Virus record (IMG/VR): IMGVR_UViG_3300008120_010803
Location: 1 to 64,000 of that record
Source: a virus
Direction: 5' to 3' (one strand)
DNA length: 64,000 bases
Each line of letters opens with the position of its first letter. Position 1 is the stretch's first letter. Below the pieces are notes generated by a model, which saw only the letters and a program-made list of their open reading frames with translations, was not told where the DNA came from and did not search any database. Made by a program: the position numbers and the translations under genes. Below are positions 41,733 through 60,535 of the stretch, in pieces.

Positions 41733-42779
41733 ATGTACAACTTCACGGATGAACAAAAAAATCTTATAGACTTTGTTTTAAAGGAATATAAACAACAACC
41801 ATATTTGACGCTTGGAGGCGTTGCTGGTTCGGGTAAATCAACTTGCCTTGCACACCTTCATAATAAACTTGCAAACTTTAAGGTGTGCGCTTACACCGGC
41901 AAAGCTGCAAATGTACTTAGAAAGAAAGGAATAGCAAACGCTGCCACAATACATTCCACTATATATGAGTATTACGATAATGAGGGAGAACTTGAATTTA
42001 GAAGAAAATTTAAAAATGAAATTGATTTTTCAGGACTGTTTGTTGATGAAGCCAGTATGGTAAGTGAAGATATATTTGATGATCTTTTAAGTTTTGGTGT
42101 TCCTATTATTTTTTTTGGTGATCATGGGCAGCTAGAGCCTGTGCAATCTAAATTTAATTTGATGAAAAGTCCCCAAGTTGTTCTTGAAACAATTCACCGT
42201 AATGCAAACACGATTGCTAAATTTGCTGATTTCCTTAGAAAAGGAAACGATGCCAAATCTTTTAAGGAATTTGATGACACCGTACAGTTATTGCCAAAGA
42301 GACTTGTAAAAACAGAAGATTTTACAAAAACTGATCAGGTCATATGTGCTTTTAATAAAACAAGAAATCTGATTAATAGAAAAGTCAGGGAGTTTCTCGG
42401 ATATGAAAAGACTGTGGTTAAGAATGAAAAGATTATATGCTTGAAAAATAATAAAAAACTTGGTATATTTAACGGGATGCAAGGAACAGTATTAAATACG
42501 GCTAGAAACATAATTACATTCAAGGATGATACCAACAATATCATATCTGTAAAAGCATTTATGCCTCAATTTGGGGTAGATAAGTTGCATGAATCTGCTA
42601 ATAACGAAAAGGATAAAGGTTATTTTGATTATGGATATTGTATCACTTGTCATAAGGCACAAGGTGATGAATGGAATAGAATCATCGTGATTGAGGAAAA
42701 GTGTGATCTTTGGGATCACAGAAGATGGGCATACACAGCTGCTTCAAGAGCTAAAACAAACATCGTATGGGCAATTTAA
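41733..42779 (+). CDS. SF1B helicase, Dda/RecD-like
   Basis: GVAGSGKS, VDEASM, GDHGQL.PV, TCHKAQG.E, YTAASRA. Confidence 0.9.
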   Translation: MYNFTDEQKNLIDFVLKEYKQQPYLTLGGVAGSGKSTCLAHLHNKLANFKVCAYTGKAANVLRKKGIANAATIHSTIYEYYDNEGELEFRRKFKNEIDFSGLFVDEASMVSEDIFDDLLSFGVPIIFFGDHGQLEPVQSKFNLMKSPQVVLETIHRNANTIAKFADFLRKGNDAKSFKEFDDTVQLLPKRLVKTEDFTKTDQVICAFNKTRNLINRKVREFLGYEKTVVKNEKIICLKNNKKLGIFNGMQGTVLNTARNIITFKDDTNNIISVKAFMPQFGVDKLHESANNEKDKGYFDYGYCITCHKAQGDEWNRIIVIEEKCDLWDHRRWAYTAASRAKTNIVWAI

Positions 42780-42786
42780 GGAAAAC

Positions 42787-44205
42787 ATGAGCACTAAAAT
42801 AATAGTCAACAACGACATTAGCGTATTGTCATCAAACAATAACGAATTACTCAAATTTCTATTTGATAATTTGAGATTTAGAGATAGATCATATTTTCAC
42901 AATGCTAGATTCAGACAGCGCCTGTGGGATGGGTATACTAATTTTTTTAATCAAACTAATGGTAAATTCCTTACTGGACTGCTTCCAGAAGTTTATGGTG
43001 CATGTAAACACTTTAATGAAAAAGTAGAATTTGTTGATAATAGGACAAAATGTGATTTTGCAATTAGTAAAATTACACCTGATTTCATGAATCAATGGCT
43101 TCCTGAAGGTATGAGTCCAATCACTCTCGAAGATTATCAATGTGAATTAGCAAATCAAGCTATAAAAAATAAGCGTGGTATTATATTTGCTCCAACTAGC
43201 GCTGGCAAGTCATTAATTATGTTATCTATTTTAAAGTCTTTGCCTCCTGAAACCAATACTCTTATTTTGCAAAATAGAAAGACCCTTGCTGCCCAAAACT
43301 ACGATGAGTATGTAAAGTGGGGCCTACCCAATGTAGGTAGAATCTGGCAAGGATATAACGAGCCGAATACATTTACTGTAGCAACAGTTCAATCCATGGA
43401 AAAAGCTTTGGATATATTACCAAAAACTCAAGTTTTACTTGTTGACGAAATACATGACATGATGTCAGCTGCACCTAAAAAGGTTTATAGGTTACTCAAA
43501 AATTGCTCTGTAAGAATAGCGGTTAGTGCAACACCATTTAAATATGGAGAAAAAGATAAGATACAGAAATATTATGTTAAAGGATTTTTTGGCCCATTAT
43601 TTAAAATTCAATCTACTGAAACAGGTTTAATCACTACAAAAGAATTACAGGAACGAGGAAGGCTATCAAAAAGCAAATGCACATTTTATAAGATTAAAGA
43701 ACCTCAATTAGATTATGAAATTTATATAGACGCTGTTACAAAAGGCCTAGTGGAAAATACTGCTTTTCATCAAAAAGTCGTTGGCCTTACCATGGATATG
43801 AAAGGTCGAACCCTCATTCTTGTTGAAAGACTTGCCCATGGGGATGCCCTGAAACAATTAATTCCGCATGCCTTGTGGGTACAAGGAAAAGATGATAATG
43901 AAACCAGACAGGAAGTTATAAAAAAGCTACAAAAATCTAAAAATTGCATTGCTATTGCTACACAAGGAATCTTTAATACTGGAATTAATGTTTTTGTGCA
44001 TAACCTTGTAAATGCTGCTGGGGGTCAGGCAGATCACTTGATTATCCAAAGAATGGGCAGAGGATTAAGAACAGCCAAGGATAAAGACGACTTAAATTAT
44101 ATTGATTTTGTTTTTGATATTAATCCATATTTGCACAAGCATAGCATGAAAAGAATTAAGATACTAAAAGAACAAGGGCATGAGGTACAAGTATTAGATT
44201 TTTAA
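42787..44205 (+). CDS. uvsW: SF2 helicase, UvsW-like
   Basis: DYQ, APTSAGKS, DEIH, SAT, QRMGRGLR. Confidence 0.85.
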   Translation: MSTKIIVNNDISVLSSNNNELLKFLFDNLRFRDRSYFHNARFRQRLWDGYTNFFNQTNGKFLTGLLPEVYGACKHFNEKVEFVDNRTKCDFAISKITPDFMNQWLPEGMSPITLEDYQCELANQAIKNKRGIIFAPTSAGKSLIMLSILKSLPPETNTLILQNRKTLAAQNYDEYVKWGLPNVGRIWQGYNEPNTFTVATVQSMEKALDILPKTQVLLVDEIHDMMSAAPKKVYRLLKNCSVRIAVSATPFKYGEKDKIQKYYVKGFFGPLFKIQSTETGLITTKELQERGRLSKSKCTFYKIKEPQLDYEIYIDAVTKGLVENTAFHQKVVGLTMDMKGRTLILVERLAHGDALKQLIPHALWVQGKDDNETRQEVIKKLQKSKNCIAIATQGIFNTGINVFVHNLVNAAGGQADHLIIQRMGRGLRTAKDKDDLNYIDFVFDINPYLHKHSMKRIKILKEQGHEVQVLDF

Positions 44206-44512: not shown

Positions 44513-45337
44513 ATGCAAGAAAATATGACATTTATGGAATGGCTTGGTGTCCCCCCGGAACAAATGTTCGGTTTTGTGGGAAATTTCGGACCAAAAGCAA
44601 CTGAAAAAACAAAAGTTTATTCCGAAGAGCCTTTGGAACCGCTACAAGTGTCTCTCATTTTAGACGAATTAGGATGGCTCGGATCAATTAATAATAAAAA
44701 GCCTCAAAGATTGTTCGAAAATGTTATGAGCTACGGAGATGTTGCAGACAGAATGCAAGTTGTTGTATCTCCATATGGCTCTCTTAAAATTATATTAAGA
44801 AAAGTCGCAACCACTTTGGAGGGAAGCTACATACCACTTTGTTATTCAATATATCCACTTATTAATGATTATAATCATAATGGAGAAAATGATGATCATA
44901 TTGAAAATATGATAGCAAATAAAATTGCAGATAAGCTTAATGAAATGGATAAAAGAATGATGTTAGGTGGAGAACGAAATTTTGAAGGCACCAGAGAATT
45001 GGTTTTAGAAATGGCTCAACATGTGAGAGCAAATCATCCTAGGTGTATGCACTTTGAGGGTGTAATTCAAAATGGAGAAAATGATTACACAATATACTTG
45101 CAATATAATGGACAAGGTGTTGAGGCCCCATCTGCCAAAAGAGTTGAGCAGTTTGATATACATCTGAATTACGATAAGGATACTGGATTGATTCGTTGCT
45201 GGGCTAATGAAATTACTAGTCCTACAAGACAACATCTTTGGCAAGTCCAACCTAGTGAATGGGATGAATACTTTTCTCCTAAACAAAAAAATAGTGAGAT
45301 TGTTGAGTGTATAATGAACGCTCTATATACCTATTAA
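44513..45337 (+). CDS. hypothetical protein
   Basis: 274-aa ORF, starts MQENMTFMEWLG. Confidence 0.65.
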   Translation: MQENMTFMEWLGVPPEQMFGFVGNFGPKATEKTKVYSEEPLEPLQVSLILDELGWLGSINNKKPQRLFENVMSYGDVADRMQVVVSPYGSLKIILRKVATTLEGSYIPLCYSIYPLINDYNHNGENDDHIENMIANKIADKLNEMDKRMMLGGERNFEGTRELVLEMAQHVRANHPRCMHFEGVIQNGENDYTIYLQYNGQGVEAPSAKRVEQFDIHLNYDKDTGLIRCWANEITSPTRQHLWQVQPSEWDEYFSPKQKNSEIVECIMNALYTY

Positions 45338-46017
45338 AATTCAAAACCAAAATACTTATTGTACATATCTGATAATTCTTTGATGTCAAAGTCTTTTAGG
45401 TTTTCTATGTTCGATAGGTCTATTATATCAGTTCTTATTTGATCAGGTAATTTCTGAATCCATTTCGAGCAAAAAACATATAATGGACTTATTTTTTTAA
45501 GTATGACAAACCTCAAAATATTTGGAGATTCTTTAATATAATTTTCTAAAGAAACATCTTCTTTTAATAAATCTTTTATTGTACGCAGAGTAAGTTCAAA
45601 TTCACTAACCACATTGGCTTCGAGATGAGCATAAGCTACTTTTGTAGTTTGCCTTTTTTCCTTAATTAATTTTTTCCACACAGCCCATCGGGCCTTTGCT
45701 TTATCTCCATGCAACAATGAGGGATCAACAAGTATACGATGGCCTTCTTTTTGGAGTTTGTGTGCTATTTCTAGTTGTGCTCTCATATACAGAACAAATT
45801 GAAAACCACTCAATGTTTCTTTGTTTGCTTTGACAAACTTCAACATATGTTTGAAAACAATACTTTTTCGAATATCTCCTTTTTTTGCTACCCTTGGGTG
45901 GCAATAATTTGGTAAAATCTTTCTTGTTAATTCAATCCATTGACAACAAAGTTGGTAGGCAAGAATCTCATCTTGATTGAGTCCTAGTTCCAGAGCCATA
46001 TGTGGGTCGTATTTCAT
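45334..46017 (-). CDS. putative helicase loader, T4 gp59-like
   Basis: Size and pattern (AYQL..., AKARWAVWKK, ILRFVILKKISP) recall gp59; near DnaB gene. Confidence 0.5.
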   Translation of the reverse strand: MKYDPHMALELGLNQDEILAYQLCCQWIELTRKILPNYCHPRVAKKGDIRKSIVFKHMLKFVKANKETLSGFQFVLYMRAQLEIAHKLQKEGHRILVDPSLLHGDKAKARWAVWKKLIKEKRQTTKVAYAHLEANVVSEFELTLRTIKDLLKEDVSLENYIKESPNILRFVILKKISPLYVFCSKWIQKLPDQIRTDIIDLSNIENLKDFDIKELSDMYNKYFGFEF

Positions 46018-46460: not shown

Positions 46461-46537
46461 AATAAGCCAAATTTTAGTTTGTTTTATTGTGCCGTTTTTG
46501 TATGCTTATTGGATTCCCTTCTTTATAGGAATATTCC

Positions 46538-47866
46538 ATGATTGACTTGGAAGCCTTATGCGCTGAGTTTTTAAGTGTTGGTTCCAAAGAGCCTATTTTA
46601 TTTTTAGACTGGTCCCCTTCTGATCCTGATTCAACTACCTTGGTTAATTTGGCCCTTAAAATTCGTTTACAGAGCATTTCTGGCTATAGTCGTACTCTGG
46701 ACCTGAATTCGGAAAATTCCTTTTCTATTCTGCGTTTAATCGAGTCTGTTTTTTCTTCTAAGAAAATTTTTATACTTGGATATAATTTTAAATCTTTATT
46801 TTCTTATTATCGTCGTGTCTGTCGATCTGAACTGGTTTTGACTAATGTAATTGATCTTTTTTGGTACGAGTCTTATAGGTCAATTGAATCTAGTAAGGGT
46901 AATATGAATTTGGGCTTATCTAATTTTAAATCTCTGATAAAAGATGCAGAAACATACAAGCTATATTCAAGTTACTATCGTGATTTAATAAGCAAAGTTG
47001 TTCCATTCATGGAATCTTTTCCTATATTGAATGATGATACTGGAACTATAGTCTATAGTAATTATAACATTGAGGGGCAAGAGAATGGGAGGCTCTCATG
47101 TTCTTGCAATAAGAAGAATGTTTTCAATCCACATTCTTTAGGAGAAGAGAAGAAAAATCTTTTATTTTATAGTTCGAATTACAAGTATTTTATGCAATTC
47201 GACTATCGGAACATGGAAGTTGCGGTTTTGGCTGAATTGTCTGAAGACTCCGAGCTTCTTGATATTGTAAAGTCTCCTGATAATAATGTATATTCAAAGA
47301 TATTTGAAAAGGTTACTGGGGTAAAGAATCACGAAGATGCAAAAAATTTGGGTAAAAAAATATTTCTCCCGCTTATATATGGGCAGACCAAGAATGGCCT
47401 ATCTAAGTCATTAGACATATCAATAGATCAGGCAGAAATATATTTTAATAACGCCAAAAAATACTTCAAGAAAAGTTTTGATTATGTTGAAGCTGCACAA
47501 AATGAGGCTTCTTCTAAGGGTTATCTTGAAGACTGTTTCAGGAGAAAAAGATATTTCATAGATGGGGAATCATATAAGGCAAGGAATTTTATAATACAAT
47601 CTCCTTCTGCTTTAATTTGTTTGGAATCGTTGTTAAAATTGTATAGAGAAGCTCAAGATATTTTCGCTGTTGCGTTTCATGTGCATGACGGATATTTCTT
47701 GGCAATTAAGAAAGACAGCATACAAGAAGCTTTTTATAGTGCAAAAAAGGCTCTTGAAGGTAAGTTGAACCTGATGCCAAATTTACAGTTAAAAACAACT
47801 GCAAAGTTGGGAAAAACGCTGGATAAAATGGTTTTACTTGAGAAAAGAAAAGAAGGTGTAATTTGA
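46538..47866 (+). CDS. family A DNA polymerase, thumb-less with degenerate 3'-5' exonuclease domain
   Basis: NGRLS, motif A FDYRNME, motif B K...K....IYG, NFIIQS, motif C HVHDG. Confidence 0.85.
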   Translation: MIDLEALCAEFLSVGSKEPILFLDWSPSDPDSTTLVNLALKIRLQSISGYSRTLDLNSENSFSILRLIESVFSSKKIFILGYNFKSLFSYYRRVCRSELVLTNVIDLFWYESYRSIESSKGNMNLGLSNFKSLIKDAETYKLYSSYYRDLISKVVPFMESFPILNDDTGTIVYSNYNIEGQENGRLSCSCNKKNVFNPHSLGEEKKNLLFYSSNYKYFMQFDYRNMEVAVLAELSEDSELLDIVKSPDNNVYSKIFEKVTGVKNHEDAKNLGKKIFLPLIYGQTKNGLSKSLDISIDQAEIYFNNAKKYFKKSFDYVEAAQNEASSKGYLEDCFRRKRYFIDGESYKARNFIIQSPSALICLESLLKLYREAQDIFAVAFHVHDGYFLAIKKDSIQEAFYSAKKALEGKLNLMPNLQLKTTAKLGKTLDKMVLLEKRKEGVI

Positions 47867-48420
47867 GTTCAATATATTTAAATTTTCCGATCACATCTGA
47901 AGAGTATAAAAGTCTCGAAAAGAAATTTGGCCAGTTGTGTTATTATGCTGCATGGCAGTTAACCCGCAAGAACTCCAATAATAATCATCAATGTGATCTG
48001 GATGATTTTCAACAGGAACTAATGCTTGCGGTACTTCGTGCTGGTTCATATTACAAGAGACAAGTTTATATTGATAGTAGTTTTTCTGCTTTATTTGATA
48101 GCAAGATGGATAAAATTGCCAGAATGGTTTTGGAAGAATTGTTTGATTTATGGAAGAATCGTACTCGTCACGGCGCTAATCGGCAAAAATTTGGAGATCA
48201 TCAAGAGAAAATTTTGGACAATTTGTGCGAATGCTATTTACGAGACTTCAGAATTCCTGATAAAAAAAGAGAATTGATTTTTGATGCCAAGTTTTTTACC
48301 TATTGCAAACAAATAGTATGGAATGCACAGAGAAACCTTGGTAAAAAGATTACTAGGGAAAAGCCGATCCGAAGTGGTCAAGTAAGTTTGTCCGATCATG
48401 ATTATCTTGTTTATGGGTGA
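47863..48420 (+). CDS. sigma70 region-2-like protein
   Basis: DLDDFQQELMLAVLRA and AKFFTYCKQIVWNA separated by an insert. Confidence 0.55.
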   Translation: MSSIYLNFPITSEEYKSLEKKFGQLCYYAAWQLTRKNSNNNHQCDLDDFQQELMLAVLRAGSYYKRQVYIDSSFSALFDSKMDKIARMVLEELFDLWKNRTRHGANRQKFGDHQEKILDNLCECYLRDFRIPDKKRELIFDAKFFTYCKQIVWNAQRNLGKKITREKPIRSGQVSLSDHDYLVYG

Positions 48421-49931
48421 GTATGAGTGATTTAAGTGAATCTGAAAAACAAACTCTTACTTCACTTATAGCAAGTGCTCCTAAACCATCTAAATTCAAA
48501 TGGGACGATAATTTTCAGCGAAGAATATTAGGTCTGATTCTCACAGATAGTTTTTTTCTGGTTCAAAGTAAATCATTGATTCAGGCAGAATATTTTACAA
48601 ATGAAGCGCATGTTCAAATTTGCAGTACAATTTATGATTACCATGAAAAATACAAGTCCATGCCTGAGAAGTTTGTTGTCAAACAACTTTTGTTGGAAAA
48701 AATAAAACAAAAACAAGAATCTGTAATACTTTACTATCAAAACGAATTAGAAAATATATATGAAGCTTTTGTTCCCTCGACAGCATCTAGGGAAATACTG
48801 CTTGACAAGATATTGGTATTTGCGAAAACCCAAGCTCTGCGAATAGCCATGGATGTTTCGCAAAAGGATTTGAAGAAAGACCCAGAAAGCGAAGAAGTAT
48901 GGACTAAAATATACGAGCGTTTTAGAGACGCTATGAATATAAATAAGAATTTTGAAATAGGATTTGAATATTTCAAGGATATAGAATTATTCTTTGCTGA
49001 TTTAGGTAAAGATACATGTGTCGAAGATACATTTACAAGTGGTTTTTCGAAGATAGACACCGCTCTTGCTGGCGGGGGCTGTAAGCGTGGAGAGATATTT
49101 GCGTGGATTGGTATGCCCGGAAAGGGCAAATCGTTGAGTCTTGTTAAGGCTGCTGTAGACAATGTGAAGCGTGGCAAGAAGGTTATGTATCTGTCTGTAG
49201 AAATGGATTGTTATAGTATCGCCAAACGATTCACAAGTCAGTTCACATTCTTGCCCCATGTCAATCTTCTCAAGCATCGTGAAGAGATTGTCAATCTTTT
49301 GTCGATGGAAACAAGGAATTATACAGACAAGAATCGATTTCTAATCAAGCAGTTCCCATCTGGTCAGATAGATGTTAACGATATTGTTGCCTACTTGAAT
49401 CAATTAGAGCTTTATGGATTCAGGCCAGACCTTCTCATAGTGGATTACCCCGGTGAAATGAAAGATGCTCCGGGTATTCCACAATGGGAAAGCAAATACA
49501 GAATCATGCGTGATTTGCGTGGCCTTGCAATTCAAAATAAAATGTGTGTTTTCACCGCAATGCAGCCAAATAAAAATGCTGCAAATTTAGCAGAATCAGA
49601 GTTTATTGATGAAGGTACGATTGGTGGAAGCTTTGATCAATTCAAGCCTTTGGATGGTTTGTGGTCAATTAATCAGACGAATGATGAAACTTCTGCTGGA
49701 TTCGGAAGAGTGTTTGTGGTAAAACACAGGAATGGAAGAAGTAGGTTTAGCTTTACTGTCAAATACAACAAAGAGAACTTGGATATATCAGAGTGCTCCG
49801 AAGGTTTGTATCGCATTGGAATGCACAATTACCAACAGGCTAAGTCTGGTGAAGTTAATTTAGACGGTGCGGTTGAAAACAAAAATTACGAACCCAAGAG
49901 TGAAGAAGAGGAGATAGATTATGCCGAGTGA
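48417..49931 (+). CDS. replicative helicase, DnaB/T4 gp41-like
   Basis: GMPGKGKS, YLSVEM, LIVDY, TAMQ, KHRNG. Confidence 0.92.
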   Translation: MSMSDLSESEKQTLTSLIASAPKPSKFKWDDNFQRRILGLILTDSFFLVQSKSLIQAEYFTNEAHVQICSTIYDYHEKYKSMPEKFVVKQLLLEKIKQKQESVILYYQNELENIYEAFVPSTASREILLDKILVFAKTQALRIAMDVSQKDLKKDPESEEVWTKIYERFRDAMNINKNFEIGFEYFKDIELFFADLGKDTCVEDTFTSGFSKIDTALAGGGCKRGEIFAWIGMPGKGKSLSLVKAAVDNVKRGKKVMYLSVEMDCYSIAKRFTSQFTFLPHVNLLKHREEIVNLLSMETRNYTDKNRFLIKQFPSGQIDVNDIVAYLNQLELYGFRPDLLIVDYPGEMKDAPGIPQWESKYRIMRDLRGLAIQNKMCVFTAMQPNKNAANLAESEFIDEGTIGGSFDQFKPLDGLWSINQTNDETSAGFGRVFVVKHRNGRSRFSFTVKYNKENLDISECSEGLYRIGMHNYQQAKSGEVNLDGAVENKNYEPKSEEEEIDYAE

Positions 49932-50361
49932 AAATTTCAGAATTGGTGAGCAAACTTTTGAAATTAATGCTGAAAACCTCAAGTTTTCAGATGCGACCCT
50001 GAATACTTTTTTTGAAAAGATTTCAGGAATTACTGATTATGTTGGTGCTGCTTTGTCTGAAGCCACAAGACAGCACTCTTTGCTGGAAGCAAAATATAAA
50101 CAAGATTACATAGGCAAGTTCAAGTTTTACAAGGAAGAGGGCAAGAGCGATAAAACCTCTGAGTTATATGCAGAGGGAGACCCTGATGTAGCTTTGGTAA
50201 AAGAAGCAGTCATAAATGCAAAATATATCAAAGATCGTCTGTATGCTCATTTAAATGCTCTTAACAATGCCAGAGATGATGCTCATAATCGTGGTCATAT
50301 GTTGAGAAAAGAAATGGATAAATTGGATATGGACATAAAGATGGGTGTCGCTGGACTTTAA
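49921..50361 (+). CDS. uvsY: recombination mediator, UvsY-like
   Basis: Size, helical composition, position after helicase. Confidence 0.6.
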   Translation: MPSENFRIGEQTFEINAENLKFSDATLNTFFEKISGITDYVGAALSEATRQHSLLEAKYKQDYIGKFKFYKEEGKSDKTSELYAEGDPDVALVKEAVINAKYIKDRLYAHLNALNNARDDAHNRGHMLRKEMDKLDMDIKMGVAGL

Positions 50362-50370
50362 AAGGATTTA

Positions 50371-51171
50371 GTGATGCAAATTAAAAGGAAAACTGTAAGA
50401 CAAGATGGAAAAATGTTTTGGGCTTACAGGTATAAACAAGGTCAGAAAAAGGAAGTATGGTTATCCCCAGATGTTTTTAAAAAATGGGATGAGACCAGAA
50501 GAAAATATGCAAGGAAGCAATACGATGAGTTCTTGAAAAAATATAAAAATGGTTCTCAAGATAAAAAATATTGTAGAGGAGAACATGATCCAGAAACGGG
50601 ATTGTATTTTATCCGTGTTTCAACTTGTGGCAAACCTGTATGGGGGTCCATTGAAGAGCTTCAAAAATACATAGGTCAAAATAGAAAAGCTAAAAGAAAA
50701 TATTATTCACGATGCTCTAGTTTAAATCCTCCTTCCGTCTGCGTTGGTGATCCCCACCCAACAACAGCAGGGCTTGTTGTTAAAAGAATTTATGGACATA
50801 AAGTTTATTATGGAACGATTGAAGAGGCAAAAAAGCATACAGATAGCAGAAAAGAAAGTTATAAGAAATACAAGCAAAAAAATAAAGAGGCTATAAAACA
50901 AAGAAGTAAAAATATAAGAAATGCTAGAATGGAAAAAATTAAAATGAACCCTATTTTAAAAAGAAGGCGTGGAGATATCGATCCGGTCTTAGGAAAAATT
51001 TTTTGGGAATATAACTATCTCGGTAACGAAATTTGGCTACATAAAGATGATTTTGAAAAAAAACATGCCAAGATTAAACAAGATAGAAAAAAATATCATT
51101 TGAAGAGAAAAGAGGCAGGCAATGACAGAGGGAGCGTTTCAAACAAAAATAATCAGACCATCATTTGTTGA
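50371..51171 (+). CDS. highly basic repeat protein, putative nucleic-acid binding
   Basis: Four degenerate modules of type RG(D/E).DP..G..F. Confidence 0.6.
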   Translation: MMQIKRKTVRQDGKMFWAYRYKQGQKKEVWLSPDVFKKWDETRRKYARKQYDEFLKKYKNGSQDKKYCRGEHDPETGLYFIRVSTCGKPVWGSIEELQKYIGQNRKAKRKYYSRCSSLNPPSVCVGDPHPTTAGLVVKRIYGHKVYYGTIEEAKKHTDSRKESYKKYKQKNKEAIKQRSKNIRNARMEKIKMNPILKRRRGDIDPVLGKIFWEYNYLGNEIWLHKDDFEKKHAKIKQDRKKYHLKRKEAGNDRGSVSNKNNQTIIC

Positions 51172-51625
51172 TTACTTTATGGCTATTGCAACGATTGCCA
51201 GCAAAAGAAGTCATGATATGCAGACGCAGCATGGATGTGTCATAACCGATGATAAAAACAGAATTTTGAGCATCGGTTATAATGGATTTGCAAGGGGTAT
51301 GAAGGACGATGAGTTGCCAAACTTAAGGCCAAAAAAGTACACATGGATGCTTCATGCAGAAAGAAATGCTTTAGCAAATTGTATGGTTAGGCCTGATGGT
51401 GGTATTGCATATGTTACTGGACAATGCTGCCTTGATTGTGGAATGGCTCTCTGGGAACATGGTATAAAAAAAATTTATATGATAGATGGGCATGGCACAG
51501 TTTTGTATGATGATGAAATGAAAGCTAATTGGAATACATTTATAGAACACACAGGTATTGATGTACACAAAATCAAGCCAGATTTAGATTGGGCAAAATC
51601 AGTTTTTGATAAGTTTTGTAATTAG
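51122..51625 (+). CDS. dCMP deaminase
   Basis: GYNG, HAERNA, QCCLDC. Confidence 0.9.
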   Translation: MTEGAFQTKIIRPSFVDYFMAIATIASKRSHDMQTQHGCVITDDKNRILSIGYNGFARGMKDDELPNLRPKKYTWMLHAERNALANCMVRPDGGIAYVTGQCCLDCGMALWEHGIKKIYMIDGHGTVLYDDEMKANWNTFIEHTGIDVHKIKPDLDWAKSVFDKFCN

Positions 51626-52946: not shown

Positions 52947-53924
52947 ATGAGTTACGAAATTGAAGATATTAACATGGAGCAAATGGGCCTAGAGGCTGCT
53001 GCCCTTAACAAAGAAACCACAGCGATGGATAACTTTGTTAAGATGCCCGAAAAAGAAGGATATGTCCTTCTTCGGTTGCTCCCAGCCCTAAAAGGCAAGT
53101 GGCATTTCTGCGCCACAAGAATTCACCGTCTTGGTGAATACCCCAATTCAAAAACTTTTCATTGCCTTCGCCAAAGAGTCAAGACTCCAAAAGGTTTTAT
53201 GTGGTTGAATCCCACAAACAACCCGAAGGATGACTGCCCAATTTGCCAAAAATATGGTGAATTGTGGAAGATTGCCAACAACCAACATGGTGATGAGCAA
53301 ATCCGTACCCAGAATACCGCCCGTGGCATCAAGCCAATCGAGCGATTTTACTGGAACACGATTGTGCGCCAACAGCTGAATCCAAAAACCAATTCCATGG
53401 ACACCAATGTTGGCCCCAAGGTATTTTCTTGCGGGAAGACCTTGCAGACCATCATAATTGATTCCATCAATGGAAATCAAATAACCGGCTTGAAGAAGCT
53501 TGGCAATGTTCTCCATCCATCTGAAGGCAGAGACTTCCGATTGGTGAAGAAAATCAAGAAAGGCAACGGTGGGTTTGAATACCCTGACTATGCTCAAAGT
53601 AGCTTTGAGGACATTTCTCCTCTTGGCACAGATTCCGAAATCAAATCATGGCTTGCAAATCTCCATGATCTTGACAGTTTCAGGGTGTTGTTGCCTAGGG
53701 AAGAAATCATTGCTGCAATGGCTGAATTCTTCAACGGTGGCAATGAAAAGGCTGACTGGGAAGATGATTCCCCCAAGTCAGCTAAACCACAACCCGCAGC
53801 TGTAAAAGCAGCAACGCCAGCAGCTAAACCTGTTGCCAAAGCTGCTCCCAAGTCCGAGATCGAGGATTTAATCAATCTTGGAATGGATGACGAACTGCAA
53901 GCTGCCCTCGATAAGCTAGGCTGA
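52947..53924 (+). CDS. single-stranded DNA-binding protein, T4 gp32-like
   Basis: LRLLP, CPIC, GRDFRL, YPDYAQSSF, acidic C-terminal tail. Confidence 0.88.
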   Translation: MSYEIEDINMEQMGLEAAALNKETTAMDNFVKMPEKEGYVLLRLLPALKGKWHFCATRIHRLGEYPNSKTFHCLRQRVKTPKGFMWLNPTNNPKDDCPICQKYGELWKIANNQHGDEQIRTQNTARGIKPIERFYWNTIVRQQLNPKTNSMDTNVGPKVFSCGKTLQTIIIDSINGNQITGLKKLGNVLHPSEGRDFRLVKKIKKGNGGFEYPDYAQSSFEDISPLGTDSEIKSWLANLHDLDSFRVLLPREEIIAAMAEFFNGGNEKADWEDDSPKSAKPQPAAVKAATPAAKPVAKAAPKSEIEDLINLGMDDELQAALDKLG

Positions 53925-54009: not shown

Positions 54010-55233
54010 ATGGCAAGAGCAAAAAAAGCTGATGCTGGCGATGACGATATTTTTGCAAGCCTCGCAAGCAATACTGGCGGTGAGGTAGTAGGGGAATCTG
54101 AAAAAGCCTCCAACTATTATATCGATACTGGCAATTTAGCAATTAATTATTGTTGTTCAGGAAGGTTTATCAAAGGTGGCGTTCCCGGTGGTCGTTTAAC
54201 AGAGATATTCGGCCCCAGCGCTTCATCAAAGTCGTTATTGGGGACTAATTTACTCTTCGGTTGTCAGAAGCTTGGTGGCATACCGATATTGATTGATAGT
54301 GAAAACGCCATAAACAAGGATTTCATTAAGAAGGCCTCTCACGCTGACCTTAATAGAATTGTTAGATACACACCAGAAACGCTAGAAAAGTGTTTCCATG
54401 TCATGTATCTTGCAATTGAGCATATTCGTAGCAACAAGAAATATGCTGATAAGCCTATTGTAATAGTTTATGACTCTATTTCTGTTAGCCCTTGTGCCAG
54501 AGAATTCAGGGAGACTGATCTGCCTGAAGGATATACACAGGCTGATTTTAAACGCATAGTTGGCGGTAATGAGCAGCCGGGAGAACGGGCAAAGATTTGT
54601 AGCAAGGAGCTTAGAAAACTCAATACTATCATGGAAGAAAACAATGTTAGTGTTGTGATTATGAATCAGATTAGAGATAAAATTGGAGTTCTATACGGAA
54701 ATCCTGAAACAACCGCAGGCGGGGGCAACTCTTTGCCTTTTTATGCATCTTTGAGATTTCGCACTCAAACGCAGAAAAAGATTGAAGAAAAAGTGCCGGG
54801 ACTTGCGAAGAAAAAAAGTATCGGCATCAACATCAAAATTAGCAACAAGAAAAACAGGAGTGTTAGACCTTTTATTGAGGTTGAGAACATTCCTCTATTC
54901 TTCGAAAAAGGAATTAATCCTATTGGCGGGCTTCTGGGAGCCCTGCTAGATGCGGATAGAATAGTAGCTGGAGGTGCTGGCAACTTTACAGTCAGGCCGG
55001 AATATGCAAACGGAAAAGAAGGTTTTAAATTTAAATCAAGTATGGAAAGAAATGATGTTCCTATTGAAGTGCTAACAGAATGTCCGTCCTTGATCGATGC
55101 TAGCTCATCTGAGGAGGTTTTGGAATATCTTGAGCCATTCAAAGAGGCAATCAATGCTACTGACAATCCTGATGTTGAAGCATTTGATGCTGGCGATGGG
55201 GATGACGAAGAGATTGATAACATTCTAGGCTGA
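54010..55233 (+). CDS. uvsX: RecA/UvsX recombinase
   Basis: IDTG, GPSASSKS, IDSEN, YDS, NQIRDKIG, GG..L.FYAS.R. Confidence 0.93.
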   Translation: MARAKKADAGDDDIFASLASNTGGEVVGESEKASNYYIDTGNLAINYCCSGRFIKGGVPGGRLTEIFGPSASSKSLLGTNLLFGCQKLGGIPILIDSENAINKDFIKKASHADLNRIVRYTPETLEKCFHVMYLAIEHIRSNKKYADKPIVIVYDSISVSPCAREFRETDLPEGYTQADFKRIVGGNEQPGERAKICSKELRKLNTIMEENNVSVVIMNQIRDKIGVLYGNPETTAGGGNSLPFYASLRFRTQTQKKIEEKVPGLAKKKSIGINIKISNKKNRSVRPFIEVENIPLFFEKGINPIGGLLGALLDADRIVAGGAGNFTVRPEYANGKEGFKFKSSMERNDVPIEVLTECPSLIDASSSEEVLEYLEPFKEAINATDNPDVEAFDAGDGDDEEIDNILG

Positions 55234-56049: not shown

Positions 56050-56979
56050 TTGCAAATGTTTAGTTTTTGTTCTAGAAGGATGGGAGTTGAATTAGAATAC
56101 AACTCATTTGATCGGCTCAGTCGTTCAAGCTCGGAAAATAATCTGCCTAATGGTATTTATGTTTTTGGAGACATAATCAAAAATACACTTGGAAAAAGTG
56201 TTGATATTAATAAATGGCATCAAACAAATAATAATGATCATTGGATTGTCAAACCAGACTCTAGTTGTGGTCTTGAAGTATGCAGCCCGCCGGATCAGCC
56301 TTACCATGCCTTGTTAGAAATTCGTAAAGTAATTGAGGGCTTGTTAAGCCACAAGTCTATTGCTGCCGACGATAGATGTAGCTTGCACTTACATGTAGAG
56401 GTTGAGGACTTTGATGAAAAAGATTTGTGCGCTTTAGTTGCGAGATGGATTCAATTTGAGCATTTTTTCTTTTTCTTGACTAAGAAAAACAGGTGGTTGA
56501 ACAGATACTGCAAACCGCTAGGATTTTACTATGAGTTTGATGGCTCATGTAGAGTCACAATAAAAAAATGCATGGAGATATTAAGTGAAAATAAATATTT
56601 TGCTATAAATTTTTTCCATTATAAAAAGGAAAAGAGGAAGACAGTTGAATTTAGGATTATGGGAAATGATGCTTGCATGGATGTAGATGATGCCATAAAT
56701 TGGTGTAAGTTAATTCTATGTTTTGTTGAAAGATGTAAAAAATTGAATTACGAATCAACATTTATAGGTGATATTAGTTATGCAAATATTGATCAAGTAA
56801 ACAAATTCCTCAACATTCATGATTTTTTTGATGAAGATGATGTTATTCTATGGGTAATATCTAGACTGAATGAAACATTGAATGAGCATTTACATGATGG
56901 GAATATTTGGAAGCAAATAATTCAATATTGTAAACCAAGTATCAGAAACCTCATAGAAGAGTTGCAAGGAAAAATATAA
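56050..56979 (+). CDS. putative amidoligase (COOH-NH2 ligase, Amidoligase_2-like)
   Basis: GVELE, KPDSS, EVCSP, CSLHLH, TVEFR. Confidence 0.85.
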   Translation: MQMFSFCSRRMGVELEYNSFDRLSRSSSENNLPNGIYVFGDIIKNTLGKSVDINKWHQTNNNDHWIVKPDSSCGLEVCSPPDQPYHALLEIRKVIEGLLSHKSIAADDRCSLHLHVEVEDFDEKDLCALVARWIQFEHFFFFLTKKNRWLNRYCKPLGFYYEFDGSCRVTIKKCMEILSENKYFAINFFHYKKEKRKTVEFRIMGNDACMDVDDAINWCKLILCFVERCKKLNYESTFIGDISYANIDQVNKFLNIHDFFDEDDVILWVISRLNETLNEHLHDGNIWKQIIQYCKPSIRNLIEELQGKI

Positions 56980-58528: not shown

Positions 58529-60535
58529 ATGAGCCAAACAATTGAACTAATAGAAGTAAACAATCTAGTTGCAACCTCAAATCATAAGTTTGCGAAATGG
58601 CCTTTTGAAAATTTCAATATAGTTCAATCTTCAATATTTGAAACTATTGAAAAAGACTGTAATTGTTTGATTGCAGCGTCTACAAGTGCTGGTAAGACAG
58701 TAATATCAGAAATGTATGGGTCTTATGAAATAAGAAAAAATAGAAAAAAGTTTTTATTTTTGTGTCCTCTTAGAGCCTTGGCTAATGAAAAATATTATGA
58801 CTGGACGCATGCTTCACATCATTTTTCAGACTTGAAAATCGGCATATTTACAGGTGATTATAAGAAAGATAACAAATTAAACGATTTTGATAGCTTTGAT
58901 GTCATAATAATGACTTCGGAAATGTTAAACCACAAGTTAAGGACTAGTAAGAAAAATCAAGATTGGGTTAAAAACATAGGGGTATGCGTTGTAGATGAAT
59001 CTCACCTGCTAACAGTAGAGGGTCGTGGAGATCATCTAGAAGCAGCGCTAATGAATTTTTCTACAATAAACCCACAATGTCGAATGGTATTCCTGTCAGC
59101 AACTTTGCCTAATGTGCATGAAATAGCTGAATGGATGTCAGTATCCTTGAATCAAAAACCAACATACATTATCAAAAGCAAGTATAGGCCTTGCGTTTTG
59201 AATATTCACACAAAAACATACGACGATCAATCAGGTGTCAGATCATCAATTTACGAAATGATTGATGAAGCCTGTGAATTAGTACTTAGGCATTTCAGCG
59301 ACAAGTTTCTTATTTTTGTTCATGCCAAGAAAATTGGAGAGACATTCGTTGAAGAACTCAAAAGAAAAAATATCAAGGCTGAATTTCATAACGCAAATTT
59401 AGATAAAGATCAGAGAGAAAAGCTGGAAACAAAATTCAAATCAGACAAAGAATTTAGAGTTTTGGTAGCAACTAGTACATTAGCGTGGGGCGTTAATTTA
59501 CCAGCAAGAAGAGTGATTATTGCAGGAGTTACTAGAGGAAATGAAGTAGTTCCGTCATATGATGTTTTGCAAATGATTGGAAGAGCAGGCCGCCCAGCAT
59601 TTGATCCCCAAGGGGACGCATATATTTTATTCCCTGCTAATAGAAGAACAGAGCTAGAAAAGGTTGTTTTGACACCACAAAATATAGAATCTCGTATGCT
59701 TGCGATAAGTGCTTTAACGACCTATGACACATTAGCATTTCATATAGTCTATGAAATTCATGTGGAAAATGTTAAAAATATTGACGATATAAAAACATGG
59801 TTTTCCAAGACTTTAGCATCATTTCAGAATAAAAAACTAAGTGACAGCATTTTAGAGAAAACAGTATCTCGTTTGGTTATGCTTGGAATAATAGGCATAG
59901 ATGATGCAACACAAAGTTTTTTCATTAAAGGACTCGGTAAGGTCTCCGCTTTGTTTTATGCTAACCCATATGATGTTGCAAACTGGTCTTCAAACTTCAA
60001 CAAACTATTTCAAAATCAACAAATTTATGATATTGATCTGTCTTTAGCTTTGGCAAATACATCATCAAATCTAGTTGGAAATTTATCTAAAGAAGATAAA
60101 AACGAAATGGAAAAATTTCTTAGTGCGATAAGCAAGAGGTCAACAAAACAATATCCAGAGAATGTTTTGAAAATTGCCTTTCTGTATTACAAAATTATGA
60201 ACGGTAGATATGAGGCCAGACATATTTCAGTATACAAAAACTTACAAAACGATTTCCCAAGAGTATCTGAAATTCTTAAGGGGATAGATTCAATAGCAAA
60301 AGGATGGAATCAAAAACAGTTTTTTGATGTTCTGCAAAAACGCATGCAACATGGCGTTCCAGCTAAGTTAGTTGATCTGATAGAAGTTAAGGGAATTGGT
60401 AAAATCAAAGCAGAAAAACTATATGAAAAGGGTTTCAAGAATAAAAAAGATGTATTACAAAAATTAGAAGAAGCATCTAAAGTATGTGGATTGAAGCCAG
60501 ATACACTAAAAAAGTATTTAGAAGGAAGTATTTAA
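58529..60535 (+). CDS. Ski2-like/Hel308-like SF2 helicase with C-terminal HhH
   Basis: TSAGKT, PLRALANEK, DESH, LSAT, TSTLAWGVNLPAR, QMIGRAGRP, VKGIGK. Confidence 0.9.
   Translation: MSQTIELIEVNNLVATSNHKFAKWPFENFNIVQSSIFETIEKDCNCLIAASTSAGKTVISEMYGSYEIRKNRKKFLFLCPLRALANEKYYDWTHASHHFSDLKIGIFTGDYKKDNKLNDFDSFDVIIMTSEMLNHKLRTSKKNQDWVKNIGVCVVDESHLLTVEGRGDHLEAALMNFSTINPQCRMVFLSATLPNVHEIAEWMSVSLNQKPTYIIKSKYRPCVLNIHTKTYDDQSGVRSSIYEMIDEACELVLRHFSDKFLIFVHAKKIGETFVEELKRKNIKAEFHNANLDKDQREKLETKFKSDKEFRVLVATSTLAWGVNLPARRVIIAGVTRGNEVVPSYDVLQMIGRAGRPAFDPQGDAYILFPANRRTELEKVVLTPQNIESRMLAISALTTYDTLAFHIVYEIHVENVKNIDDIKTWFSKTLASFQNKKLSDSILEKTVSRLVMLGIIGIDDATQSFFIKGLGKVSALFYANPYDVANWSSNFNKLFQNQQIYDIDLSLALANTSSNLVGNLSKEDKNEMEKFLSAISKRSTKQYPENVLKIAFLYYKIMNGRYEARHISVYKNLQNDFPRVSEILKGIDSIAKGWNQKQFFDVLQKRMQHGVPAKLVDLIEVKGIGKIKAEKLYEKGFKNKKDVLQKLEEASKVCGLKPDTLKKYLEGSI

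Follow-up and report, generated by a model that had tools for sequence, protein, structure and literature searches.

A thumbless family A DNA polymerase encoded by huge phages

The DNA analysed here, called the window in what follows, is a stretch of 64,000 nucleotides (positions 1 to 64,000) of the IMG/VR virus record IMGVR_UViG_3300008120_010803, and its gene polA encodes a family A DNA polymerase that has no thumb. The whole record (G000) has 80,161 bases and a CheckV completeness of 15%, and is a fragment of a huge phage. The polA open reading frame (ORF) codes for a protein of 442 residues (Table 1). Residues 139-427 of this protein match PF00476 (DNA_pol_A) with an E value of 8e-32 and 111 bits for a cut-off of 34.3, covering positions 85-378 of the 381 of the profile and leaving positions 1-84 unmatched, and the DNA-polymerase families of PHROG match the protein likewise. 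The profile of a family alignment (A1, 80 sequences) matches Bst Pol I at an E value of 8e-29, and the solved proteins closest in sequence are Taq and Bst Pol I. The 5'-3' nuclease domain (PF02739/PF01367) is absent from the 442-residue protein, of which the N-terminus is an exonuclease-like domain. Among deposited phage genomes, the sole near-full-length match (32.5% identity) was found in LR756511, an uncultured phage of 595 kb. These results confirm that the protein is a genuine family A polymerase.

A thumb is considered common to all right-hand DNA polymerases, where it grips the primer-template duplex and determines both processivity and frameshift fidelity. A preliminary description of the window, made from the letters alone, had proposed that polA encodes a PolA with the thumb deleted. 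The fold was predicted with AlphaFold2 from alignment A1, and the modelled sequence was that of the cluster representative P0001, which carries L23F and S26P as its sole differences from the window protein. The model has a mean predicted local distance difference test score (pLDDT) of 95.2 and a predicted template modelling score (pTM) of 0.92. It is made of an alpha/beta domain (residues 1-113), two helices (123-135 and 137-159) and two strands (163-165 and 170-173) separated by a four-residue turn without secondary structure, after which come the usual elements of the palm and the fingers. Nothing resembling a thumb (helices H, H1, H2 and I) was observed in the model. Foldseek and VIA-align placed it on Pol I large fragments (Z 29-31, root-mean-square deviation (rmsd) about 3 Å). 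On KlenTaq (3po4_A), model residues 9-433 were aligned with Taq 297-832 (Z 31.1, rmsd 2.9 Å) and 389 residues were paired for a chain of 538, while on M. smegmatis Pol1 (Msm Pol1), model residues 1-433 were aligned and 415 residues were paired for a chain of 567. Nearly all residues of the model were paired with the canonical enzymes, leaving about 150 canonical residues unpaired.

We then looked at the spacing and the register of conserved residues on both sides of the missing domain. Residue counts, here and below, are those of 216 family members that show 29-89% identity to the window protein. The spacing from the motif-1 Glu (E159) to the Arg of the TGR motif (R185) is 25 residues in the window protein and in 191 of the members (range 21-30), against 126 in E. 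coli Pol I (E541 to R668) and 125 in the canonical P0084. Over residues 149-165, the members have the consensus PLITxVLPxIETxGLLD, which keeps the Pro, Leu, Val-Leu, Ile-Glu, Gly and Asp of motif 1 in register with positions 532-548 of E. coli Pol I (PLVPVLSRIERNGVKID), and where E159 is invariant and P156 nearly so. When residues 116-167 alone were compared by hhalign with canonical PolA profiles, the sole notable matches were to E. coli Pol I 506-545 (E 0.018) and P0086 465-502 (E 0.013), that is, to the end of the ExoIII helix and motif 1, and the helix that follows the thumb scored nothing. Because of this spacing and of the motif-1 register, the junction given in the preliminary description, in which the ME..G helix passes straight into the strand that precedes TGRLS, was correct. 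A deletion located farther upstream was also considered, since phmmer and Pfam lay residues 146-165 ungapped on Taq 534-556, the helix after the thumb. This register was rejected on the basis of the anchor-free profile alignment and the family consensus, and we read it as a probable ungapped run-on from the GRLS anchor. A global hhalign of the family with canonical PolA put the exonuclease-like domain on the thumb with zero confidence. We take the thumb helices, following the established anatomy of the Klenow fragment, to be about E. coli Pol I 549-651. Altogether, the profile match, the model and the residue spacing confirm that the whole thumb, about 100 residues, is excised and that motif 1 runs directly into the strand with the Arg of the TGR motif.

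In the remaining polymerase domain, the catalytic Asp residues of motif A (D222) and motif C (D384) are invariant, as are K273, R185 and G282. The steric-gate Glu (E227) is found in 215 members, and the position of Y281 is Tyr or Phe in all of them. Other signature positions have a composition proper to the family. The TGR motif is NGR (G184 in 214 members and N183 in 191), (Q)NIP is replaced by N-P-H-S, and position B3 of motif B (L277) is Leu in 206 members. The preliminary description had pointed out that motif C keeps its Asp and has Gly for the usual Glu; this holds for the window protein (HVHDG), and position 385 is Gly in 197 members, Ala in 12, Ser in 4 and Glu in 3. It had also reported a Lys for Arg at the first residue of motif B (269), which is indeed found in the window protein but is a minority variant, present in 18 members including this one, with Arg in 197. 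Taken together, the conserved positions point to a polymerase that would be active and dNTP-selective, with family-specific DNA contacts, and they support the activity that had been suggested from the window alone.

The N-terminal region is a vestigial 3'-5' exonuclease-like domain. From residues 1-14 onward, the model was aligned with the exonuclease-like domains of KlenTaq, Bst and Msm Pol1, and hhalign gave a weak match to the exonuclease domain of E. coli Pol I (338-422, E 0.04). The registers of the exonuclease motifs come from such weak hhalign alignments (E 0.04-0.17); the motif order is canonical, and the registers agree with the strands of the model. The Glu of ExoI and the Asp of ExoII are replaced in these registers (Table 1), which bears out, weakly, what had been noticed before, and the portion of the ExoIII helix carrying Tyr497 and Asp501 is missing. 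Since the ExoI Glu, the ExoII Asp and the ExoIII Tyr and Asp are lost, the domain, as judged from its sequence, cannot act as a DEDD exonuclease. The heading under which it had been announced, with no exonuclease carboxylates, is slightly too strong, because the ExoI Asp (D24) is kept in the window protein. Only 11 members have Asp at position 24, and Glu or Asp occupies position 26 in 117. The FDTMLESY segment has its counterpart in the conserved D106-L-x-W-x-E-S-Y, and K85 (214 members), D106 (213 members), E111 and D31 are near-invariant.

To define the extent of the family, homologs were collected from several sources. A set of 83 homologs, going down to about 29% identity, measured 387-484 residues, three fragments aside. 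An exhaustive profile search returned 259 cluster representatives at E<=1e-30, and the best 150 of these were about 420-445 residues long, except fragments and five proteins (P0093, P0096, P0130, P0142 and P0157) that carry an N-terminal extension of about 85-120 residues, for a total of 507-545. Clustering at 50% identity gives the family a minimum of 216 clusters, and the thumbless form was found in all 216 members examined. Among longer proteins, only canonical three-domain bacterial Pol I was found, at 22-26% identity, with no long or fused form, and among the BFVD viral structures there was no relative of equal length, only full-size PolAs. The gene was detected at 152 IMG/VR loci, on contigs of up to 572 kb, and on only three contigs of metagenome-assembled genomes among 185,579 prokaryote species genomes. 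Near-identical DNA came from freshwater and lake metagenomes of 14 studies, and no RNA dataset was listed among the public runs containing it. Four runs, all from different studies, yielded contigs that span the whole stretch with 4-7 substitutions and carry the polA ORF without indel. A one-base deletion polymorphism was seen at 46525, 13 nucleotides 5' of the polA start codon, in the contigs of two of these four independent runs. These results indicate that the short form defines a large and purely viral family, carried by huge phages (up to 595 kb) that are mostly from freshwater.

Such a reduced protein could also be a relic without activity, serve a structural purpose only, or stem from a pseudogene or from faulty assembly, and the loss of the thumb, of the second motif C carboxylate and of the exonuclease residues would fit this. 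We find it hardly credible, with catalytic residues that are invariant over members as distant as 29% identity. A pseudogene or an artefact is moreover contradicted by the constant length and by the intact ORF in four independent assemblies; local pseudogenisation, the case that the preliminary description had held against itself, was not seen, all homologs down to 29% identity being short (about 420-455 residues) and none full-length.

Table 1. Features of polA and of the genes around it (positions in the window)
Feature	Position	Strand	Basis or remark
SF1 (RecD/Dda-like) helicase	41733-42779		Context
SF2 (ResIII/DEAD) helicase, upstream of polA	42691..44205	+	Pfam, PHROG
Conserved protein g274	44513-45337	+	No Pfam/PHROG match; 61/82 loci
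Conserved 227-residue protein g227	45334-46017	-	No Pfam/PHROG match; 72/82 loci
Thumbless family A DNA polymerase gene (polA)	46538..47866	+	ORF, PF00476, AlphaFold2 model, KlenTaq match, conserved family
Vestigial 3'-5' exonuclease-like domain, residues 1-136 (core 1-113; helix 123-135 = tail of ExoIII helix)	46538..46945	+	Model, hhalign
ExoI equivalent ILFLDWS	46595..46615	+	hhalign: D24 = E. coli D355, S26 = E357 (Glu lost)
ExoII equivalent GYNFKSLF	46778..46801	+	hhalign: N83 = N420, K85 = K422, L87 = D424 (Asp lost)
Motif 1: helix 137-159 (...VVPFME) and strand ILND, final element ahead of the missing thumb	46946..47035	+	hhalign, family consensus
Thumb-deletion junction NDDTGT, residues 165-170	47030..47047	+	Model strands, spacing; replaces E. 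coli Pol I ~549-651
TGR motif as GQENGRLS (Asn for Thr; R185 = E. coli R668)	47075..47098	+	Aligned with Taq and Bst GRLS
Motif A YFMQFDYRNMEVAVL, catalytic D222, steric-gate E227	47186..47230	+	Aligned with Taq LLVALDYSQIELRVL
Motif B (O-helix) EDAKNLGKKIFLPLIYGQ: K269, K273, L277 (position B3), Y281	47333..47386	+	Alignments
Motif C AFHVHDGYF, catalytic D384, Gly for canonical Glu	47672..47698	+	Aligned with QVHDE of Taq and Bst
185-residue sigma-70 region-2-like protein, directly 3' of polA	47863..48420	+	Sigma70_r2, fold search, ESM Atlas
DnaB-like replicative helicase	48417..49931	+	PF03796 E 5e-9; phrog_19 E 1e-52; downstream in 77/82 loci
Conserved protein g146	49921-50361	+	No Pfam/PHROG match; 68/82 loci
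dCMP deaminase	51122-51625		
gp32-like SSB (a protein that binds single-stranded DNA)	52947-53924		
RecA/UvsX-like recombinase	54010-55233		
Amidoligase-family protein	56050-56979		
DEAD-box helicase with C-terminal helix-hairpin-helix (HhH)	58529-60535		

Downstream of polA, the gene for a 185-residue protein begins with a TTG start that overlaps the polA stop (TTTGA) and is preceded by GAAGGTG. It adjoins polA in 79 of the 82 related loci, and across the lineage its product is better conserved (46-89% identity) than the polymerase (29-80%). The protein is all-helical, with weak Sigma70_r2 matches in 13 of 46 members. The lead obtained from the ESM Atlas was to viral sigma region 2 proteins, and in a wide VIA fold search sigma domain-2 structures came on top (Z 7.7-6), the rows being weak singly and mutually consistent; Foldseek against the PDB returned no significant match. 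For these reasons, the 185-residue protein is read as a sigma-like transcription factor and not as a polymerase subunit. It carries an insertion and has no region 4, and its gene shows translational coupling with both polA and the DnaB-like gene. It was considered as a partner that would supply the thumb in trans or act like MP, the small partner of the CcPol polymerases described below, and this was rejected, given its likeness to sigma domain 2 and the lack of any PF00476 similarity in 46 homologs (E<=1). In three loci, the junction between polA and the sigma-like gene is interrupted by 0.9-5.5 kb (L061:11302-16841, L083:11002-14687 and L069:11053-11942), and the extra DNA possibly corresponds to mobile elements. 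As for the other conserved genes, the upstream neighbours of polA have no Pfam or PHROG match, and a search of the ESM Atlas with the upstream 227-residue protein gave no usable lead. We consider g227, g274 and g146 as candidate replication accessory factors. The neighbours of polA, from helicases to SSB and recombinase, form a T4-like replication and recombination module that is built on DnaE instead of PolB.

The DnaE-type (family C, PF07733) polymerase gene lies on the record of the window, beyond the window itself (G000:79663-79977), and another is present in LR756511. DnaE was found in 13 of 19 related records searched, and the five records searched for PolB had none. A separate candidate for the replicative polymerase, for which the preliminary description had advised looking, is encoded on the same record, and its view that the thumbless enzyme is not the replicase is supported. 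Each of three records rated complete has one PolA, the short one, and no second PolA fragment that could supply a thumb was found in G000, LR756511 or G001-G003. In this lineage, DnaE is often made of two ORFs located 5-16 kb apart, the first, of about 450-490 residues, holding Pfam positions 3-98 and the other, of about 830-1090 residues, holding positions 100-259, as in G002 (214221-214919 and 230217-230531), G003 (178836-189008), G004-G006, G010, G011, G014 and G015, and it is in one piece (about 1185 residues) in LR756511 and G009. Two complete relatives also encode a DnaG-like Toprim primase (L086:1012-2031 and L088:1078-2217 (-)), a divergent protein of 339-379 residues with a Toprim_2 match and a weak DNAG_N match; no such primase was detected in the window's own 80-kb record, itself only a fragment.

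The thumbless enzyme could itself be a replisome polymerase that receives its grip in trans, whether from a sliding clamp, from the DnaB-like helicase, from SSB or from one of the conserved neighbours, and it would then work at the fork, for example by extending primers that are handed to DnaE or by copying one strand. The coupled run of polA, the 185-residue gene and the DnaB-like helicase gene agrees with this, as does the conservation of g227, g274 and g146 (Table 1), and the near-invariant K85, D106, E111 and D31 in the dead exonuclease-like domain suggest an interaction surface that has been kept. However, the coupled protein resembles sigma domain 2, which is neither a DNA clamp nor an SSB, the N- and C-termini of the polymerase are variable with no conserved tail of the clamp-binding type, and no fusion with a partner was found among longer proteins or the representatives of the profile search. 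We therefore hold a replisome polymerase gripped in trans to be doubtful, with a small but real chance. Equally doubtful is the thumbless PolA as a new kind of minimal replisome enzyme beside DnaE, one that would do without a hold on the duplex, either as a primase or primer-extender that begins or takes over very short primers or as an enzyme receiving its grip from a separate conserved phage protein.

The order of polymerase, small protein and helicase genes recalls that of CcPol-MP-Cch2, found in SCCmec and related elements of Bacillota (PMC7581432, PMC10061031), where CcPol is likewise a small family A polymerase of a mobile or viral genome, whose gene directly precedes those of a small protein and a helicase. 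A primase-polymerase of this type would start DNA chains de novo with its small partner, next to the helicase. Such a function would be consistent with the partial exonuclease domain and shortened thumb of the S. aureus CcPols (PMC10061031) and with PrimPol, a primase-polymerase that has no thumb and makes almost no primer contacts (PMC8241999). The resemblance to CcPol, with its reduced exonuclease domain and thumb and, as here, no 5' nuclease, is one of form only. The thumb of CcPols is only shortened (PMC10061031) whereas it is absent here, and the exonuclease-like fold is nearly complete in the thumbless family. The segment described as shortened in CcPol, between R185 and D222, is not shorter in length here, with the same 36 intervening residues as in E. 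coli Pol I. MP is an SSB-like protein of the oligonucleotide/oligosaccharide-binding (OB) fold and the neighbour here is helical and sigma-like; the helicase is DnaB-like, of another family than Cch2, and relatives of the window phage, two of them complete, additionally encode the DnaG-like Toprim primase. A CcPol-MP-type primase-polymerase is thus very unlikely.

The composition of the module bears on another possibility, a polymerase for lesion bypass, modified DNA or RNA templates, whose open cleft, lacking a thumb, would accommodate distorted or non-B duplexes. A Hel308-like helicase is encoded 11 kb downstream of polA, the nearby dCMP deaminase and amidoligase are nucleotide-modifying genes, the enzyme is without proofreading like Pol theta and Pol nu, and the altered NGR, NPHS and HDG are at positions that contact DNA or metal. 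Nevertheless, the enzyme is canonical at its steric-gate Glu and at the Lys and Tyr of its O-helix, and the thumbs of Pol theta and Pol nu are retained and even enlarged. We regard this function as decidedly unlikely.

The reading that we favour, with somewhat better than even confidence, is that of a catalytically competent DNA-dependent DNA polymerase, made of a palm, fingers and a dead exonuclease-like domain, that serves in auxiliary short-patch synthesis beside DnaE. The DnaE enzyme would be the likely replicase. Having no thumb, the family A enzyme would have little grip on the primer-template duplex, so that few dNTPs would be added per binding event, and it would not proofread. Within the phage T4-like replication and recombination module, its short-patch synthesis could serve for gap filling after primer removal, for brief extension of primers or invading 3' ends, or for repair synthesis. 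The Klenow thumb-tip deletion mutant reportedly lacks 24 residues. According to Minnick et al. (1996, as cited in PMC10061031), truncation of the thumb in E. coli Pol I leaves activity and lowers processivity and fidelity, and it is from this published phenotype that we infer non-processivity here. The truncation phenotype, together with the lost primer contacts of PrimPol, leads us to consider an active, distributive, non-proofreading auxiliary polymerase, acting in gap filling, primer replacement or recombination synthesis, as the most likely role.

Several points weigh against this auxiliary role. Mutation of the second motif C carboxylate (E. coli E883) in the Klenow fragment reportedly lowers kcat (the turnover number), and with Gly at this position the activity of the thumbless enzyme could be low or dependent on a partner. 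The constant tight coupling of polA to the downstream gene and the DnaB-like helicase gene could mean a role in the replisome and not in repair. G001, which is rated 100% complete, shows no DnaE or PolB; this absence is weak evidence, since polA of G001 is 19 kb from the contig end and dnaE of G000 is 33 kb downstream of polA. Finally, no PF02739 5'-3' nuclease, which would be the partner for primer removal in the manner of Pol I, was found in G000 or in the 595-kb LR756511.

Compared with the Pol I large fragments (KlenTaq, Bst LF and Klenow), the thumbless family has the same palm, fingers and exonuclease-like fold, motifs 1, A, B and C in the same order, together with the catalytic Asp residues, the steric-gate Glu and the Lys and Tyr of the O-helix, and its exonuclease-like domain is inactive like those of Taq and Bst. 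It differs from bacterial Pol I by the absence of the thumb of about 100 residues and of the 5' nuclease domain, and by NGR for TGR, NPHS for (Q)NIP, Leu at B3 and HDG for HDE. From the Asp of motif A to that of motif C, 161 residues are counted in the window protein against 176 in E. coli Pol I. The PolAs with a 'broken thumb' (SPO1-like, KPP25-like, APEX 1/2 and CHEAPs; Czernecki et al. 2023, PMC10201439) are also phage or auxiliary enzymes, with disrupted thumb helices and, for some, sealed and inactive exonuclease pockets, but unlike the thumbless family they retain the thumb. Of the 19 clusters in that reclassification, in which broken thumbs and thumb insertions are described, none is described as thumbless, and the Thr of TGR is replaced only in cluster 14, by Ala (PMC10201439), whereas it is Asn here. 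In the literature on jumbo-phage polymerases or TV-Pol, no description of a thumbless PolA was found. The Klenow mutant cited above, which is active without part of the thumb according to the account in PMC10061031, can serve as a model for the expected phenotype; its loss is engineered and restricted to the tip, while that of the phage family is natural, complete and conserved by selection.

What is new here is a thumb-free family A polymerase kept by selection with its active site intact, in at least 216 clusters and at 152 IMG/VR loci. The NGR, NPHS, Leu at B3 and HDG signatures mark a PolA subfamily that is absent from the 2023 reclassification. Its existence indicates that a palm-fingers core is useful by itself in vivo, and the family offers a natural test bed for the contribution of the thumb. 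At about 50 kDa, the enzyme is also a candidate for a very small polymerase scaffold without exonuclease, of use in enzymology or engineering. Should it instead be a minimal replisome enzyme, it would represent a naturally split or thumb-free right-hand polymerase at the replication fork beside DnaE. For the replication of huge phages, the results suggest that a DnaE replicase and a Pol I-like helper are combined, as in bacteria.

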